Virus record (IMG/VR): IMGVR_UViG_3300032268_001179 | Source of the DNA: an uncultured virus (IMG/VR IMGVR_UViG_3300032268_001179) | Taxonomy: Duplodnaviria; Heunggongvirae; Uroviricota; Caudoviricetes | Direction: 5' to 3' (one strand) | DNA length: 64,000 nucleotides | Shown: in pieces, positions 55,163-63,349 of the stretch | Layout of the letters: each line of letters opens with the position of its first letter | How positions within the stretch are numbered: position 1 is the stretch's first letter | Made by a program: the position numbers and the translations under genes | Notes under the pieces: model-generated | Seen by the model: the letters and a program-made list of their open reading frames with translations, nothing else | Databases searched by the model: none | Told to the model about the DNA's origin: nothing

Positions 55163-56371
55163 ATGAGTATCGAAAAACTAATATCAAAAATATTTGAAGA
55201 CATTGATCAGAATAAGAAAATTCTTAAAGAAGCAATGGTCAAACCTATCGACGTGGCATCTTCTTATCCTGATCTAATATTTGCAACAAGAACCCAAAAA
55301 GATGATATTAACCAAGCATTATTGGATGACCTTCAAAAAGCCTCTGATATTACAGGATTAAAAGTAAATGTAAATTTTGCCAAGACTGATCACGGAAAAA
55401 ATACTGCGAGCGGTAACGTTAGTAGACACTACACAAACCAGGCGGTTGATATTGGGTCAATAGGTGGGAAAATAGTAAGCCCAAATAATAGAGATGTTGT
55501 AAACAAATATGTCAATGCTTTGGTTAGTATGGGATATACCAAAAACTCTGAAGGTGGTAACCCTAAGTCAGTACTAACATTTGGATTTCCAGCACATGAT
55601 GATCATATTCACGTTTCAAATACTACAGGCTCATCTTCAGTAGTTTCGAATACCTCAGATTCATCTTATGATGTCGACGATAGATCTCAAACCGCTTATG
55701 ATTATGCAATGTCTCAAGGAGATGGATCAAGTCCTAAAGAAGTAATTGGACAGAGAATTCTCACAATTCCTGGTATATTTGAATCAGTAGGTTTTGGAAA
55801 AAATGTCTCCAATAGATATGGTAGGTTAATTATTCCAAAAGATAAAAATCCGAAAATCAAATCCCCAATTTCAGGCGTTATCGACAATAGAAAATATTTT
55901 CCAAACTGTGTTAATCAAGTCACGGTGAGAAATGACGACAATGGAACAACCTATCTCCAATATTGTGGTATATCAAGTCCCAAAAGATTAAGAAATGAGG
56001 AATCCGTAAGTATCGGAGATACTTTAGGTTCGACTGATACAGATGTTGAGGTAAACTACTATGATGCAAGTTGGAATAAACTTCCGATCTCGTCTGCAGG
56101 TATTTCTATCGAAAAATCAGATACTGATACTGAAAAGAAAAAAAATACAACAGAACCTGAATATTATGACCCATTAATGGCGGCATTACTTTTAGCGCCA
56201 TCAAAGATTTTTAAAGATAAATTTGATAAAGAAGGAAATAGAGTCGAAAAAAGATATGGTGGAGTTTCTGACAAACAACAAGTTGATCCTTTTGTGTTGA
56301 ATTTTTTAAAAGACCCTTTTAATAGAAAAAAGGTAAACGAGAATATTGAAAAGATTAAAAAAATGTTATAA
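55163..56371 (+). CDS. putative peptidoglycan peptidase (M15-like) with degenerate M23-like domain
   Basis: SRHY...AVD and HDDHIH. Confidence 0.6.
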   Translation: MSIEKLISKIFEDIDQNKKILKEAMVKPIDVASSYPDLIFATRTQKDDINQALLDDLQKASDITGLKVNVNFAKTDHGKNTASGNVSRHYTNQAVDIGSIGGKIVSPNNRDVVNKYVNALVSMGYTKNSEGGNPKSVLTFGFPAHDDHIHVSNTTGSSSVVSNTSDSSYDVDDRSQTAYDYAMSQGDGSSPKEVIGQRILTIPGIFESVGFGKNVSNRYGRLIIPKDKNPKIKSPISGVIDNRKYFPNCVNQVTVRNDDNGTTYLQYCGISSPKRLRNEESVSIGDTLGSTDTDVEVNYYDASWNKLPISSAGISIEKSDTDTEKKKNTTEPEYYDPLMAALLLAPSKIFKDKFDKEGNRVEKRYGGVSDKQQVDPFVLNFLKDPFNRKKVNENIEKIKKML

Positions 56372-56414
56372 AAAAAACCCACTTTCGTGGGTTTTTTGAT
56401 TTTGTGAGTTGTTA

Positions 56415-56624
56415 TTACTTTACTGCCTCACCTTTAGCGGCTTCAACTTCTACAACTTCAGCTCCACCAACTTCAACTTCTTCAACTGCGACTGTGTCAG
56501 CAACTTCAACCTGTACTGAATCAACTGCTACTGAATCAGTTCCTTCAGATTGAACTCCTTTACCTCCGCAAGATGCAAGAACTGTAGTCGCTGCGATTGC
56601 GAATAATACGAAAATTTTTCTCAT
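56415..56624 (-). CDS. small lipoprotein
   Basis: lipobox LASC. Confidence 0.7.
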   Translation of the reverse strand: MRKIFVLFAIAATTVLASCGGKGVQSEGTDSVAVDSVQVEVADTVAVEEVEVGGAEVVEVEAAKGEAVK

Positions 56625-57061: not shown

Positions 57062-57062
57062 G

Positions 57063-58151: not shown

Positions 58152-58568
58152 TTACTTATTCAACAACCAAGATGAAGATTGGATTTTATCTCCAAGTCCG
58201 TCAATCAATTTAACCCCCAACCAATCACAAATTGGGGTCTCAGGGATACTATTATTGTTTTGGTCCCCACCATTGGCGAATAGGAATTCGTCCTCTCTAT
58301 CCCCCAAAGAATGAATCAATTCAATTGTCTTACACACAGTTCGATCTGTATCAACTGAAAGAAATACTCTATCAACCATTTTTAGGTTTTGAATGATGAA
58401 CATTCTTTCATTCTCATCTTGAAATTCTTTACTACCCTTCAACTCTCTCTGTTTGTCGTTATTGACAATAACATAGAGTTTGTCACCATGTTCTTTGGAC
58501 TTATTGAAATATTCGATATGTCCCTTATGAACAGGATTAAAATAACCGCTTACAATTACAATTTTCAT
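58152..58568 (-). CDS. cytidylyltransferase-family (HIGH) nucleotidyltransferase
   Basis: SGYFNPVHKGH, FANGGD, KIQSSS. Confidence 0.85.
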   Translation of the reverse strand: MKIVIVSGYFNPVHKGHIEYFNKSKEHGDKLYVIVNNDKQRELKGSKEFQDENERMFIIQNLKMVDRVFLSVDTDRTVCKTIELIHSLGDREDEFLFANGGDQNNNSIPETPICDWLGVKLIDGLGDKIQSSSWLLNK

Positions 58569-60747: not shown

Positions 60748-60828
60748 TAGTCAGGACAGGTACTGCCCCTGTTGCTTGGTCTTTTGCGTTTCAGCGTCAC
60801 CCACGAGTTACTTTTACACTACCTGACT
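60748..60828 (-). ncRNA. tRNA-like RNA TL3 (AGTCAGG family)
   Basis: AGTCAGG/CCTGACT-A; ACAGG-GGCAGTA-CCTGT. Confidence 0.7.
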
Positions 60829-60829
60829 A

Positions 60830-60968
60830 TGTTGAGGATGAGAAGTCCTCTGTGTTGTAGTGCACGATTATGTTTTCCATAATTCAAGTAATGTCACTCA
60901 TCTTTATGTCTCCTTTCTCAAGGGTACAACACGTTGTAATAGAGTGGGTCTATTCCCCACAGTCAACA
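60830..60968 (-). ncRNA. unknown multi-stem RNA
   Basis: TGTTGA/TCAACA, GTGGG/CCCAC, GTGTTGTA/TACAACAC, ATTATG/CATAAT, GAGGA/TCCTC. Confidence 0.55.
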
Positions 60969-61064
60969 GAACTTGAAACTTACCTACGAGAGAGAGGTAT
61001 TCTGTGTGATCGTTCCCATTGCCTAAACAGTGTCTAGTATGCCTTCGGTTGCCTCTCGTGTCAG

Positions 61065-61207
61065 TAGTCAGGACAGGATTTGAACCTGTATGATTGAAAA
61101 GACCAATTTTATTCGGTTCTTCGGGATGGTCAACATATTTAATGTGATGTCTCACGGCCCGACTAATCAATCACCCATTACACGTCTACCAATTTCGCCA
61201 CCTGACC
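61065..61207 (-). ncRNA. tRNA-like RNA TL4 (AGTCAGG family, Leu-type D arm, long arm instead of anticodon arm)
   Basis: GGTCAGG/CCTGACT-A; TGGCGAAATTGGTAGACG; ACAGG-TTCAAAT-CCTGT. Confidence 0.7.
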
Positions 61208-61326
61208 AATGTTTTTAGTTACTTTATCAACACTTCTCCAAGAACCACCTCGGCCAGTTTATATCAATTTCACTTAGGTTACGTCATGATTCTGCTGGTT
61301 AAGCGTCCTCAATCTAAACCCGTTTG

Positions 61327-61432
61327 TAGTCAGGACAGGTACTGCCCCTGTTGCTTGGTCTTTTGCTCACAGAGTGTCACTTATGATACTCTGTCAAACG
61401 TCACCCACGAGTTACTTTTACTCTACCTGACT
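61327..61432 (-). ncRNA. tRNA-like RNA TL5 (paralogue of TL3)
   Basis: same frame as TL3 with a different central hairpin. Confidence 0.7.
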
Positions 61433-61436
61433 ATAC

Positions 61437-61619
61437 TGTAATACCGTTTCTTTGGTTTTTACTTATGGTTTGTTCCCCATAACCTGTTGACGTGCACATC
61501 AGAGCAGGGACCTATACAGTGTCTATCGAGCCGTTCCTCACCTTCCAATTATGGTTGCGACCCATTCGGAAGTCGATAGTCCTTTCAGTGAAGCATTATC
61601 ACCTTCTGTAGATATTACA
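61437..61619 (-). ncRNA. unknown ~183-nt multi-stem RNA
   Basis: TGTAATA/TATTACA closing stem; CTATCGA/TCGATAG, CTTCC/GGAAG, CCTG/CAGG, TTATGG/CCATAA. Confidence 0.55.
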
Positions 61620-61622
61620 TTG

Positions 61623-61696
61623 TACTCCGTACGGGACTCGAACCCGTAAGCTCTCCCGTGAAAGGGGAGTGTCCTAACCAATTAGACGAACGGAGC
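61623..61696 (-). tRNA. trnE: tRNA-Glu(UUC)
   Basis: cloverleaf; loop CTTTCAC. Confidence 0.95.
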
Positions 61697-61748
61697 TTGT
61701 TTGTCTTACAAAGATACTACAATATTTCAAAGAACAAAAAGATGTCAT

Positions 61749-61781
61749 AAAAAAACCCCAAACTTTTTTAAGAGTTCGGGG
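61749..61781 (-). terminator. attenuator terminator (3:4 hairpin)
   Basis: CCCCGAACT/AGTTTGGGG stem followed by T7. Confidence 0.85.
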
Positions 61782-61820
61782 TCTAAAAATTTAATTTAAC
61801 TTAAATTAAAAAATTACTTT

Positions 61821-61910
61821 CTATGACATCCGAACTACAGGGCAAATACTTTCATACCAACAATTCTCTTGTTGACTATTACTGTTAATATATTGACCTG
61901 TAGTTCTCAT
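61821..61910 (-). CDS. 29-aa attenuator leader peptide MRTTGQYINSNSQQENCWYESICPVVRMS
   Basis: ATG 61910 to TAG 61821; contains 1:2 hairpin arms and the antiterminator arm; codons match downstream tRNAs. Confidence 0.8.
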   Translation of the reverse strand: MRTTGQYINSNSQQENCWYESICPVVRMS

Positions 61911-61927
61911 TGTATTGATAATTACTT

Positions 61928-61958
61928 CTAATGTATGAAATATTTTTATTTTGTCAAA
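61928..61958 (-). promoter_or_regulatory. putative promoter of the leader/tRNA operon
   Basis: TTTG - 19 nt - TACATTAG (one mismatch to TAnnTTTG); also reads TTGACA..TACATT. Confidence 0.55.
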
Positions 61959-61967
61959 TGTTTTTTG

Positions 61968-62041
61968 TATCCCCGACACGATTCGAACGTGTGACCCCAA
62001 ACTTAGAAGGTTTGCGCTCTATCCAGCTGAGCTACGGAGAC
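61968..62041 (-). tRNA. trnR: tRNA-Arg(UCU)
   Basis: cloverleaf; loop CTTCTAA. Confidence 0.95.
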
Positions 62042-62498: not shown

Positions 62499-62585
62499 AT
62501 GATTCTCTCCTTTATTCCAAAGAACGATAGTGTTTGTATCAGAGATGGGAGTCGAACCCACACGGGCTTACGCCCAACAGATTTT

Positions 62586-63279
62586 CTTACCACTATGGTT
62601 TTCACCACCTTCACAGTTTGTGGTCTGGACTATACCTTCACCATATTTTTCAACTTAGGTGTTCCCCGTCTAGTCTCTACACGTTCCCTTTCGGGCTTCG
62701 CTCGGTATTCCCATTTCAAAGGGTTCACCGAATTTGAGGAATTCTACTTAAACGATTTCTCGTCTAGCACTCATGTTCTTGCCTCTATAGTTGTCGGTAA
62801 ATGAATGACAATTAGGACATAGTAATTGTAAATTTTCAATCCTATTATCAAATTTATTACCGTTCACGTGATGTAATTCTAAAGGTATTGGTTTATCAAA
62901 CCACTCAGAATTACTACACATTTCACAAACATGTTTCTTATAATCAAGTTTCAATAGTTGATTTTTCAAATTATAGCTAGAGATTGGTAAACCACTAGAG
63001 TACGTTGAATGCTCAACTAACTTGTGTGAAAGATCTTTAGATTTAGACCATTTTTTCCCTTTGTTCCATGTCATGCCATGAAAGTGAGACGTATCTATAT
63101 CCAACATTTTCAATCTGGTTTTAATATTTGCATAATTACCACCAGCTTCTTTCAAACCAAGTTTTTGTAAAACTTGTCTTACAGACCCACAGTCTTTTAC
63201 TATAGGTTCAAGGTATTCTTTCGTATATTTTGTGTTCATAATAATAAATATCATGAACTATGGTAAACGAAAAAGAATT
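62586..63279 (-). mobile_element. group I intron (trnL/IC3-like) in the anticodon, carrying an HNH ORF
   Basis: 5' exon ends in U, intron ends in G; P AAATTCGGTGAA, Q AATACCGAGC, R GTGTAGAGACTAGACGG, S GAAGGTATAGTCC. Confidence 0.9.
62748..63239 (-). CDS. intron-encoded HNH homing endonuclease
   Basis: CEMC..LELHHVNG...DNRIENLQLLCPNCH. Confidence 0.9.
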   Translation of the reverse strand: MNTKYTKEYLEPIVKDCGSVRQVLQKLGLKEAGGNYANIKTRLKMLDIDTSHFHGMTWNKGKKWSKSKDLSHKLVEHSTYSSGLPISSYNLKNQLLKLDYKKHVCEMCSNSEWFDKPIPLELHHVNGNKFDNRIENLQLLCPNCHSFTDNYRGKNMSARREIV

Positions 63280-63349
63280 AAGTCTGTCATGTATACCATT
63301 CCATCACTCCGACATTGTGAAACAATATTAAAAAAAAATGGTGATATTA

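Follow-up and report, generated by a model that had tools for sequence, protein, structure and literature searches.

The window analysed here, a stretch of 64,000 nucleotides from an uncultured virus of the Caudoviricetes, carries on its minus strand (61958-61749) an element consisting of a Bacteroidota-type promoter, a 29-codon open reading frame (ORF), complementary segments with the alternative pairings 1:2, 2:3 and 3:4, and an intrinsic terminator. This element is likely a ribosome-mediated (leader-peptide) transcription attenuator belonging to the tRNA genes of the phage. Its interpretation as a trp/his-like attenuator, which would read the supply of the tRNAs placed after the leader, is well supported at the level of sequence comparison, where the tests on conservation and compensation in the pairing arms and on the correspondence between codons and tRNAs were favourable. 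Given that the leader names the amino acids carried by the tRNAs behind it, the phage probably makes more of the matching tRNAs when ribosomes run short of them. Leader-peptide control is known for genes of amino-acid synthesis and not for tRNA genes, and no published account of attenuation controlling tRNA genes was found in literature searches. tRNA genes under the ribosome-stalling logic of trp/his attenuation would represent a new target for a classic mechanism.

Anatomy and tRNA surroundings of the leader element

The promoter, the ORF, the segments and the terminator, which the preliminary description had placed on the minus strand, were all found there at the positions listed in Table 1. 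Promoter P1 can alternatively be read as TTGACA-16-TACATT and was scored 10/12 in a sigma-70-like scan. Within segment 2, CCTGTAGTTC (61841-61832) is the perfect complement of segment 1, and AGTTCGG (61836-61830) is the perfect complement of CCGAACT (61779-61773) in segment 3. The stop codon of the ORF is located just beyond segment 2. The terminator (61784-61749) was called by a terminator scan. For the region 61741-61925 a folding energy of -55.4 kcal/mol was calculated, compared to -28.3 +/- 3.7 kcal/mol for shuffled sequences (n=200; z = -7.3), and none of the shuffles equalled it. No match of 61741-61958 to a leader or T-box family was obtained in Rfam at E <= 1; the sole Rfam leader match elsewhere was Leu_leader at 56371-56461 with 25.7 bits versus a gathering score of 50. 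The assignment of segments 2 and 3 to a tRNA acceptor stem was rejected: the 48 nt between them are taken up by the A/T hairpin, and no tRNA was called by ARAGORN or Rfam.

Table 1. Coordinates of the leader element and of its flanking features in the window
Feature	Position	Strand	Details
tRNA-Arg(TCT)	61967..62041	-	last of upstream block; 8 nt from its end to the TTTG of P1; ARAGORN and Rfam
Promoter P1	61928..61958	-	TTTG 61958-61955, spacer 19 nt, TACATTAG 61935-61928
Leader ORF	61821..61910	-	ATG 61910, TAG 61823-61821; 29 codons; peptide MRTTGQYINSNSQQENCWYESICPVVRMS
'Sensor' stretch		-	codons 6-23 of leader ORF
Segment 1	61897..61906	-	GAACTACAGG; covers codons 2-5; 10 bp perfect with segment 2
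Inner hairpin CAACAA/TTGTTG	61851..61874	-	within ORF (QQ..CW codons); MFE and centroid
Segment 2	61830..61841	-	CCTGTAGTTCGG; partner is segment 1 or segment 3
A/T-rich hairpin	61785..61818	-	interval between segments 2 and 3; MFE
Intrinsic terminator	61749..61784	-	segment 3 CCCCGAACT 61781-61773, loop, segment 4 AGTTTGGGG 61764-61756, T7 61755-61749
Promoter-like P2	61709..61738	-	TTTG-N18-TATCTTTG; perfect match to Bacteroidota motif
Conserved P2 box	61734-61720	-	TTCTTTGAAATATTG; within P2
tRNA-Glu(TTC)	61622..61696	-	first tRNA of downstream block; ARAGORN and Rfam

The downstream block comprises 11 tRNAs, namely Glu followed by Asn, His, Cys, Trp, Tyr, Gln, Ser-GCT, Ser-TGA, Gly and Ile, and reaches tRNA-Ile at 57062. 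Long ORF-bearing gaps occur within it (e.g. the 1.95 kb that separate Glu from Asn), and co-transcription of the whole block is putative. The element is not the head of the tRNA region, because tRNA-Arg(TCT) and an intron-bearing tRNA-Leu(TAA) stand upstream of it; relatives even have a complete tRNA block, with Met, Thr, Ser, Leu and Arg, ahead of the element.

An alternative promoter had been suspected past the terminator, and P2 does look real: it matches the Bacteroidota motif perfectly, and 40 of the 41 family members keep TAnnTTTG at most 75 nt past the terminator, with the box start TTCTTTGA present in 29/41. In the window the P2 box exists as a single copy, and no other was found at up to 1 mismatch. 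The terminator is thus separated from tRNA-Glu by a promoter. Because P2 is conserved, the downstream block need not depend on read-through at the window locus, where read-through would only add to basal transcription. The preliminary description had proposed an attenuator that senses tRNA supply and gates the array; the sensing part is backed by the conserved and compensatory arms and by the codon-tRNA match, whereas gating of the array in the strict sense is not supported, given the conserved P2 between terminator and tRNA-Glu. A 9-nt inverted repeat shared by the P1 spacer and the P2 box was considered as an operator pair and discarded, since by eye it was unconserved in group B.

Conservation and pairing pattern of the element family

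The family comprises 41 distinct members, all from uncultured phage contigs (viral and metagenome). From 80 of 86 stretches the pattern scan gave 81 matches, and 37 loci passed the element filter; the remaining matches, mostly in GC-rich DNA, were taken as chance, and L151 and L218 were removed as false positives prior to counting. The family pattern had no match among cellular genomes of 185,579 species, and in the GenBank phage collection only tRNA parts were matched (at most 8% of the query), with no relatives of the element. In all 17 arrays examined the element directly precedes the first tRNA of the downstream block, with Arg(TCT)/Leu(TAG) on one side and Glu, Val or Asn following (17/17). 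Of the 40 members for which 45 nt or more of upstream sequence is available, 35 have a P1-type promoter (TTTG-N18-20-TAnnTT[TA][GA]), and the distance from the end of its box to the ATG was 16-18 nt in these 35.

All 41 members, the groups of which average 75% identity, retain an intact ATG-ORF (24-36 codons), and both indels located 5′ of segment 2 in alignment A2 have a length of 3 nt. Across the 41 sequences the 1:2 helix is 86.3% paired, with changes on both sides in 2-3 pairs, including the two top pairs. The 2:3 helix is 99.0% and the 3:4 helix 98.1% paired, and slid controls for the three helices did not exceed 56%, part of the family sample having been chosen by the exact segment 2/segment 3 pattern. 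The inner hairpin is 96-100% paired. At alignment columns 87/146, belonging to the 2:3 helix, GC was counted in 34, AU in 4 and GU in 2 sequences, and at columns 146/167, by which the same segment-3 base is joined to segment 4, CG was found in 34, UG in 4 and UA in 2. The 2:3 helix is lengthened to 10 bp in group F and L248 (by eye), and the A/T-rich hairpin varies in sequence among subgroups and is retained as a hairpin in L012 and L013 (by eye). In the distant lineage L023 the terminator is built from other sequences (CCTCGGGA/TCTCGAGG), accompanied by changes in segments 2 and 1 (GTCTCGA and TGAGAC). Compensatory change in arms 1-4, which had been named as a check, was observed as conserved helices, some changes on both sides and the co-variation of all three segments in L023. 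Within the family the variation in 2:3 is thin, with 4/7 pairs invariant and the A-U change confined to 4 related sequences. RNAalifold on alignment A2 returned the inner hairpin and the terminator, and neither 1:2 nor 2:3.

Leader codons correspond to the tRNAs of the adjoining block

Under standard wobble the 11 downstream tRNAs suffice to read all 18 codons in the middle of the leader (codons 6-23), in agreement with the preliminary description. The 21 codons read by the downstream tRNAs account for 38.6% of the codons used in 71 proxy genes, and the chance of 18/18 is therefore 0.386^18 = 3.6e-8; the rough estimate made earlier (near 1e-7) was of the right order. Among the 463 ATG-ORFs of at least 20 codons in the window, no other reaches a run of 18; one 429-codon ORF has a run of 17, and the next best short ORF one of 9. 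Each amino acid is represented by 1-3 dispersed codons, and no runs are formed.

The same correspondence was found in the relatives. In arrays with complete blocks, 13-18 of 17-19 middle codons have a tRNA in the own block, versus 24-46% expected, and 0-4 codons belong to the upstream block. The amino-acid set of the leader covers that of the block 11/11 in G001, with Pro as sole extra, and 13/13 in groups B and E, with 1-2 extras. At the amino-acid level 394 of 463 residues match the own block over 23 distinct leader/block pairs, whereas shuffled leader/block pairings gave a mean of 229 and a maximum of 350, and 394 was reached in 0/20000 shuffles. The set statistics were calculated without G005, G009 and G013, the arrays of which are broken by contig ends, and the array readings without L222, L235, L234 and L242. 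Several codons, GGT, GTC, ACT and CCT among them, match a tRNA by amino acid only and not by strict wobble.

Leaders and arrays also change together. Compared to groups B-G, clade A no longer has tRNAs for Val, Phe, Met and Arg(ACG) and has acquired those for Asn and Gly downstream; V, F, M and R have disappeared from its leader, and N and G have been added. G012 is devoid of Val and Lys tRNAs and has neither V nor K in its leader middle, and in its sister G013 both tRNAs are present together with matching codons. In L255 one leader contains all 13 amino-acid kinds (13/13) of a differently composed block. Relatives with reduced arrays retain unmatched codons, the match being 13/18 in G002, G004 and G010 and 15/18 in G003; in G002 (CheckV 100%) the Asn, His, Lys and Gly tRNAs are absent and those codons are kept. 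The anticipated co-variation of leader codons with the tRNA array thus holds across lineages and for two leaders of one genome, but it is imperfect, as seen in G002.

In groups B-G a second leader of similar build heads the upstream tRNA block. It is spelled in N, T, L, D, P, G and A, and the block contains Pro, Asn, Asp, Gly, Thr, Ala and Leu tRNAs. When the two leaders of one genome were compared with its two blocks, the counts were [[19,2],[3,18]] (Fisher p = 5.5e-7). Between the terminator of the second leader and tRNA-Pro, 11 loci have 5 nt, and two loci each have 8 nt and 12 nt, which leaves no room for a promoter behind the terminator. In these other lineages the tRNA block behind the second leader would accordingly be reached by read-through alone. 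The second-leader ORFs of L256, L272, L280 and L277 were left out, as the longest-ORF rule took the wrong frame, and L260 and L270 were rejected as second-leader loci because no tRNA lies behind the pattern match. With a looser second-leader pattern, 39 ordinary terminators were retrieved from cellular genomes, with a tRNA within 400 nt in 0/39. No second leader was found in the clade of the window, where a plain promoter precedes tRNA-Met in 6/6 loci read.

Proposed switch, alternative explanations and relation to known attenuators

We infer that the ORF is translated and that termination takes place, as well as which way the switch works and how far co-transcription extends, and the following sequence of events is proposed. 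Transcripts from P1 would carry the 29-codon ORF with its middle written in the amino acids of the downstream tRNAs, and transcripts continuing from tRNA-Arg would probably carry it too. If the ORF is read quickly to the stop codon, or is not translated at all, the RNA would adopt the 1:2 + 3:4 form and RNA polymerase would halt at T7. A ribosome waiting at a codon with scarce charged tRNA would leave segment 2 free as segment 3 emerges; the 2:3 helix would then pre-empt the terminator, and transcription would enter tRNA-Glu and the rest of the block. The tRNA products would relieve the stall, closing a feedback loop that acts on about 10 tRNA kinds pooled from host and phage. P2 behind the terminator would provide switch-independent transcription at the window locus.

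The geometry of the switch was examined in masked folds of the RNA. In RNA cut before segment 4 the 2:3 helix forms when the ribosome footprint is placed at codons 2-10 or 20-22, and with a footprint from codon 23 to the stop codon segment 2 is masked. With a footprint at codons 11-19, 1:2 still closes around the masked stretch in an energy model without sterics, and in the equilibrium fold at full length the terminator is always kept. From these two results it follows that the switch would need kinetic control and steric exclusion, both of which lie beyond the model.

An explanation very unlikely in our view is an independent small gene, in which P1, ORF and terminator make a 29-residue peptide or a structured small RNA of ~165 nt and, jointly with this, P2 drives the tRNAs, with the terminator serving as an insulator only. 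The element does possess its own promoter and a strong terminator, P2 is conserved, the RNA is strongly structured, and the peptide parts M[KR]TT, QQ, CWYE and CSS[DE] are conserved across groups; moreover, in other bacteria a trans-acting role is possible for attenuator RNAs after termination, as reported for rnTrpL (PMC6614838). However, the peptide parts in question fall on segment 1, the inner hairpin and segment 2 and are conserved as nucleotide sequence, and in the clade of the window the C-terminal frame is shifted while the element is still retained. An independent gene would also give no account of a variable middle that is limited to the amino acids of the following tRNAs and changes with the block, of two leaders in one genome dividing the amino acids like the two blocks, or of a second leader without a promoter between terminator and tRNA-Pro. 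Chance, i.e. an accidental ORF in a structured spacer with a codon match arising from polar, AT-rich composition, can practically be dismissed. One long ORF of the window does have a run of 17 covered codons, and close relatives are so similar that bare ORF retention among them means little. Yet all ORFs are intact across groups of 75% average identity, no shuffled pairing equalled the observed match, and the rule is also obeyed, with different amino acids, by the upstream-block leader, L255 and L023.

A sensor of translation speed with another output, in which the ORF reads tRNA supply and the result is not additional tRNA made by read-through, would account for the codon match just as well. 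Transcriptional interference with P2, changes in how the upstream tRNA transcript is stabilised or processed and a trans-acting terminated leader RNA were considered as such outputs, and taken together they are held to be unlikely. P2 directly after the terminator would fit them, as would the fact that the element also terminates transcripts of tRNA-Arg, which ends 8 nt before P1. Against them stand the conserved 2:3 versus 3:4 pairing, which is the signature of conditional termination, and the second leader, behind the terminator of which there is only a tRNA block.

If the element is an attenuator of tRNA genes, a further reading can be put forward as rather doubtful: the leaders may be a putative multiplexed alarm of the phage against host tRNA loss, plain feedback on the pooled charged tRNAs being the other trigger considered. 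Cleavage or depletion of any of about 10 tRNA kinds, e.g. by anticodon nucleases from the defence systems of the host, would stall ribosomes on the matching codon, the stall would open the terminator, and replacement tRNAs of the phage would flood the cell. Should this be true, each tRNA block would be a demand-induced counter-defence operon, beyond an aid to codon usage. By means of the leaders it could be tested whether an attack on the tRNA pool of the host is sensed by phages.

Control of tRNA genes is usually viewed as acting at the promoter (growth rate, stringent response) and in processing. Multivalent attenuators are known from enterobacteria, such as the thr leader with Thr/Ile codons and the ilvGMEDA leader with Leu/Val/Ile codons, in addition to trpL, hisL, leuL and pheL. 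The phage element shares with the attenuators of enterobacterial amino-acid operons the short leader ORF, the 1:2/2:3/3:4 alternatives, the intrinsic terminator, regulatory codons naming what the operon supplies and a stop codon just beyond segment 2. It differs from them in that its targets are tRNAs instead of enzymes, and in that 8-13 amino acids occur mostly 1-3 times each, whereas enterobacterial leaders contain runs of 1-3 kinds. Its regulatory codons are located in the loop between segments 1 and 2, whereas the enterobacterial ones lie within segment 1. Furthermore, unlike the enterobacterial attenuators it is phage-borne, has a Bacteroidota-type promoter, a short untranslated leader, no Shine-Dalgarno sequence and a second promoter behind the terminator, and matches no Rfam leader family.

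In pheM/pheST attenuation one amino acid is sensed and a synthetase is controlled, and T-box riboswitches bind uncharged tRNA directly without involvement of the ribosome. Both resemble the phage element as transcription attenuation that responds to the charging of tRNA and acts on a component of the decoding apparatus; unlike both, the phage element targets the tRNA genes themselves, and it has no T-box match. The Bacteroid-trp leader motif of Rfam is a predicted leader peptide of Bacteroidota with Trp codons and a terminator. The motif suggests that leader-peptide attenuation is workable in the presumed host phylum, although the motif is cellular, concerns a single amino acid and a biosynthetic operon, and has no sequence likeness to the phage element. 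That the host belongs to the Bacteroidota is suggested by the promoter type, and the family would in this case indicate transcription-translation coupling on mRNAs with short or absent 5′ leaders in this phylum. If the attenuator reading is true, one leader would test about 10 or more kinds of tRNA simultaneously, the tRNA arrays of phages would be demand-regulated operons and no longer passive supplements to codon usage, and a leader listing the amino acids of a block would be a sequence signature for tRNA regulatory units.

RNA data comprised 24 runs with small shares of the region, four of which were examined as assembled contigs, a format without starts, ends, strand or levels, and were given no weight in the interpretation. 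In these contigs the depth of the leader bin was 10-29 in X5 and 0-1.4 in the other runs. A 177-nt record of X4 joins 61769-61702 to tRNA-Asn, as in relatives with Asn after the element.

Organization of the element and its family

The element, which consists of promoter P1, a 29-codon leader ORF, segments 1 to 4 and a terminator, is most likely a leader-peptide attenuator of the downstream tRNA block, as judged from its sequence. The coordinates given in the preliminary description all agree with the sequence, and P1 comes near the Bacteroidota promoter consensus. The element folds at -55.4 kcal/mol, compared with -28.3 +/- 3.7 kcal/mol in shuffled sequences (z = -7.3; 0 of 200 shuffles as good). 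The alternative promoter suspected past the terminator is matched by a perfect motif (P2) inside the 52 nt separating the T-run from tRNA-Glu; motifs of this type occur 15 times in the window versus 2.7 times in shuffles.

Coordinates of the element and of further features of the tRNA region in the window
Feature	Position	Strand	Remark
Promoter P1	TTTG 61958-61955, 19-nt spacer, TACATTAG 61935-61928	-	near-consensus Bacteroidota-type
Leader ORF, 29 codons	ATG 61910, 17 nt past P1; TAG 61823-61821	-	sequence
Segment 1 GAACTACAGG	61906-61897	-	perfect complement of segment 2
Segment 2 CCTGTAGTTC	61841-61832	-	perfect complement of segment 1
AGTTCGG (segment 2 overlap)	61836-61830	-	perfect complement of CCGAACT, 61779-61773
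Intrinsic terminator CCCCGAACT/AGTTTGGGG + T7	61781-61749	-	in terminator-scan list
P2, TTTG-N18-TATCTTTG	61738-61709	-	perfect motif
Box (G)TTCTTTGA[AC]nT[AG]T..	61720-61734	-	single copy in window
Split tRNA-Leu(TAA)	62536-63313	-	694-nt insert in anticodon loop
HNH endonuclease ORF in insert	62748-63254		168 residues
Freshwater-1 RNA (RF02979) match	61457-61518	-	74.9 bits; gathering score 72
Long tRNA-model match	61065-61207	-	143 nt, 33.7 bits
29-nt stretch, two copies	60755-60773; 61334-61352	+	579 nt apart
Transferase-like protein	58152-58568	-	138 residues

The box listed in the table sits between the leader terminator and the first tRNA in most lineages and is kept even without TAnnTTTG at the usual distance (group E and locus L255). 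It could represent an unusually arranged promoter element or a different kind of signal.

No relative of the element was found in the GenBank phage collection. A neighbouring 84-residue protein used as query yielded 27 IMG/VR loci; in the close ones the element is present behind tRNA-Arg, and in the distant ones (60-69% identity) tRNA-Met follows directly behind tRNA-Arg. With various parts of the element as anchors, pattern scans yielded a family of 41 distinct sequences (mean column identity 75%; alignment A2), which were sorted by eye into groups A (that of the window), A2 and B to H. The family pattern had no match in 185,579 bacterial and archaeal species (one genome each). The position of the element is the same in all 17 arrays read: Arg(TCT) or Leu(TAG) is on one side and the first tRNA of the downstream block on the other, with a gap of 10 nt to 2 kb on the upstream side and a consistently short one on the downstream side. 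The downstream block of groups B to F reads Glu, Val, Phe, Lys, Cys, Trp, Tyr, Met, Gln, Arg(ACG), His, Ser, Ile, Ser.

Alternative pairing and the leader reading frame

In alignment A2, the 1:2 helix is 86.3% paired, with seven core pairs nearly invariant and two top pairs varying on both sides (AU 13, GC 7, UA 2 and GC 14, UA 11, UG 2). The 2:3 helix is 99.0% paired, a value to be read with the facts that one pattern scan behind the family sample selected exact segments 2 and 3, that four of its seven pairs never vary and that the A-U change at its variable pair (GC 34, AU 4, GU 2) is confined to four related sequences. For the 3:4 helix the paired share is 98.1%, with CG 34, UG 4 and UA 2 at the same segment-3 base; pairing in slid controls reached at most 56%. 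It follows from these counts that the segment-3 U of group G forms an A-U pair with segment 2 and a G.U pair with segment 4, and that group F shows the reverse. In group F and locus L248, segment 3 is a repeat of segment 1, by which the 2:3 helix is extended to 10 bp (read by eye). The distant lineage L023 has a different terminator sequence (CCTCGGGA/TCTCGAGG), and its segment 2 (GTCTCGA) and segment 1 (TGAGAC) are altered in keeping with it. Compensatory changes in the four arms, which had been proposed as a check of the attenuator, are found in the both-sided 1:2 changes, the 2:3/3:4 variants and L023. RNAalifold applied to A2 returned the inner hairpin and the terminator, and neither 1:2 nor 2:3.

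An ATG-ORF of 24-36 codons is kept in 41 of 41 members, its stop falling within a range from 8 nt upstream to 26 nt downstream of the segment 2 end (6 or 14 nt downstream in most cases). Both indels located ahead of segment 2 measure 3 nt. In the window's clade, a 1-nt deletion beside segment 2 turned the ancestral tail CSS[DE].. into PVVRMS, and the element survived. The peptide is conserved where it overlaps segment 1, the inner hairpin and segment 2. In the middle, the sequence is free to vary but the set of amino acids used is not.

Leader codons and the tRNAs of the following block

All 12 tRNA genes in the window are on the strand of the element, and 11 are downstream of it. The element does not head the whole tRNA region: tRNA-Arg(TCT) ends 8 nt before P1 and an intron-bearing tRNA-Leu(TAA) lies further up; in relatives, Met, Thr, Ser, Leu and Arg tRNAs are found upstream. 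With standard wobble, the 11 downstream tRNAs read 21 codons, which account for 38.6% of the codons used in 71 proxy genes, and each of the 18 codons lying between segments 1 and 2 is one of these 21, as claimed. This run of 18 is the longest among the 463 ATG-ORFs of at least 20 codons in the window; the next short ORF reaches 9, and one ORF of 429 codons reaches 17.

In arrays with complete blocks, the share of middle codons read by the downstream block was likewise above the expected 24-46%: 17/18 in G001, 15/18 in G003, 13/18 each in G002, G004 and G010, 14/17 in G012, 17/19 in group B, 13/18 in group C and 14/18 in groups D and F. These leaders contain few codons of the upstream block (0-4 versus about 30% expected, groups B to G). 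The G001 leader names 11 of 11 amino-acid kinds of its block with Pro as the sole extra, and those of groups B and E name 13 of 13 with one or two extras. Among the 463 middle residues of 23 distinct leader/block pairs, 394 belong to the amino-acid set of the block that follows; when the pairings were shuffled, the mean was 229 and the maximum 350, and the result of 0 in 20000 reaching 394 is no probability, since the pairs share descent.

The weight of the codon/tRNA rule rests on contrasts between leader types and between sister lineages. The proposed co-variation of leader codons with tRNA content is borne out by parallel differences: in the window's clade, tRNAs for Val, Phe, Met and Arg(ACG) are lost and those for Asn and Gly have moved downstream, and its leader lost V, F, M and R and gained N and G. 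G012 is without Val and Lys tRNAs, and its leader has E for V and no K in the middle, whereas its sister G013 has both tRNAs and both V and K codons; in G001, tRNA-Lys occurs together with an AAA codon. Counter to the rule, reduced arrays retain orphan codons, as in the CheckV-complete G002, which has no Asn, His, Lys or Gly tRNA and yet a leader identical to that of G001. In several leaders of other types, which head other tRNA blocks, the C-W-Y and V-F order of the peptide is the same as the Cys-Trp-Tyr and Val-Phe tRNA gene order.

Proposed mode of action, further leaders and other features of the region

The conserved alternative pairing, the intact ORFs and the codon/tRNA rule support both the attenuator class and the tRNA matching originally put forward. 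A ribosome waiting at a codon short of charged tRNA would let 2:3 form, so that the polymerase would continue into the tRNA block; with quick reading or no translation of the leader, the transcript would end at 61749. As the stall would be relieved by the tRNA products, feedback on the pooled tRNA supply would result. P2 would contribute switch-independent transcription at the window locus. We infer from the sequence that the leader is translated, that termination takes place, in which direction the switch responds and how far read-through extends; the last point is relevant in view of the ORF-containing gaps of up to 1.95 kb in the block. In folds of RNA ending just before segment 4, a ribosome footprint on codons 2-10 or 20-22 led to the 2:3 helix, and from codon 23 to the stop segment 2 was covered and unable to pair. 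A footprint on codons 11-19 does not keep the energy model from closing 1:2 around the covered part; a real ribosome would probably block this closure. Because the terminator is always retained in the full-length equilibrium fold, the choice has to be made kinetically, as it is in trp.

Among known systems, the multivalent thr and ilv leaders come closest. In contrast to these, the target here is tRNA genes, ten or more amino acids are named, the regulatory codons lie within the 1:2 loop, the promoter is of Bacteroidota type with no Shine-Dalgarno sequence, and a second promoter lies behind the terminator. Rfam leader and T-box families did not match the element. A search of titles and abstract openings found no account of attenuation on tRNA genes, in line with the preliminary description, which knew of none for a phage tRNA operon.

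Groups B to G carry a second promoter-ORF-terminator unit ahead of tRNA-Pro, the gene with which the upstream block begins. It has the M-K-T start, the C-x-S-S-[DE] end and the CCCTGAA/TTCAGGG terminator in common with the first leader and looks like its paralogue when judged by eye. Its middle reads N T N T N L D T P T T P N G D A G T, and the tRNAs behind it are Pro, Asn, Asp, Gly, Thr, Ala, Leu, Arg and Leu. Within one genome, the first leader holds 19 downstream and 2 upstream kinds and the second 3 and 18 (Fisher p = 5.5e-7). The second leader of group F, in which a search turned up no tRNA-Ala, has a Gly codon in place of the Ala codon; that of group D keeps an Ala codon without tRNA-Ala. 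The terminator lies 5 nt (11 loci), 8 nt (2 loci) or 12 nt (2 loci) before tRNA-Pro; there, the upstream block can be reached only via read-through. The second leader is absent from the window's clade, which has a plain promoter before tRNA-Met in 6 of 6 loci read. L255 carries a single leader before Pro, Pro, Lys, Cys, Trp, Leu, Val, Tyr, Ala, Gln, Met, His, Arg and Ile, naming 13 of 13 amino-acid kinds of this block, and the L023 leader (L023:1148-1306) obeys the codon/tRNA rule with a different block. Other block-specific leader types were seen in L122, L123, L124, L249, L250, L253 (upstream of tRNA-Pro), L255 and L023.

The split tRNA-Leu(TAA) was called by ARAGORN only when introns were allowed and is uninterrupted in relatives. 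The ORF in its insert matches HNH PHROGs at 1e-45, and no group I intron model matched. Contigs from three RNA libraries omit 62564-63278, with about 20 other letters in its place, and the highest contig depth of the region falls on the insert part 62623-62823. The freshwater-1 RNA match lies about 100 nt behind tRNA-Glu, within the tRNA block. The long tRNA-model match, end to end and without an ARAGORN call, could represent either an insert-bearing tRNA or an RNA resembling a tRNA; the relatives G001 and G002 have long matches of a similar kind, and RNA-library contigs are deep across 60814-61215. The 29-nt stretch (small hairpin and tail), found twice in the terminator scan, indicates a direct repeat within the tRNA block. 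Between tRNA-Cys and tRNA-Trp, a cytidylyl/adenylyl-transferase-like protein is encoded, which matches PHROG 7878 at 2e-17 and, more weakly, NMN adenylyltransferase.
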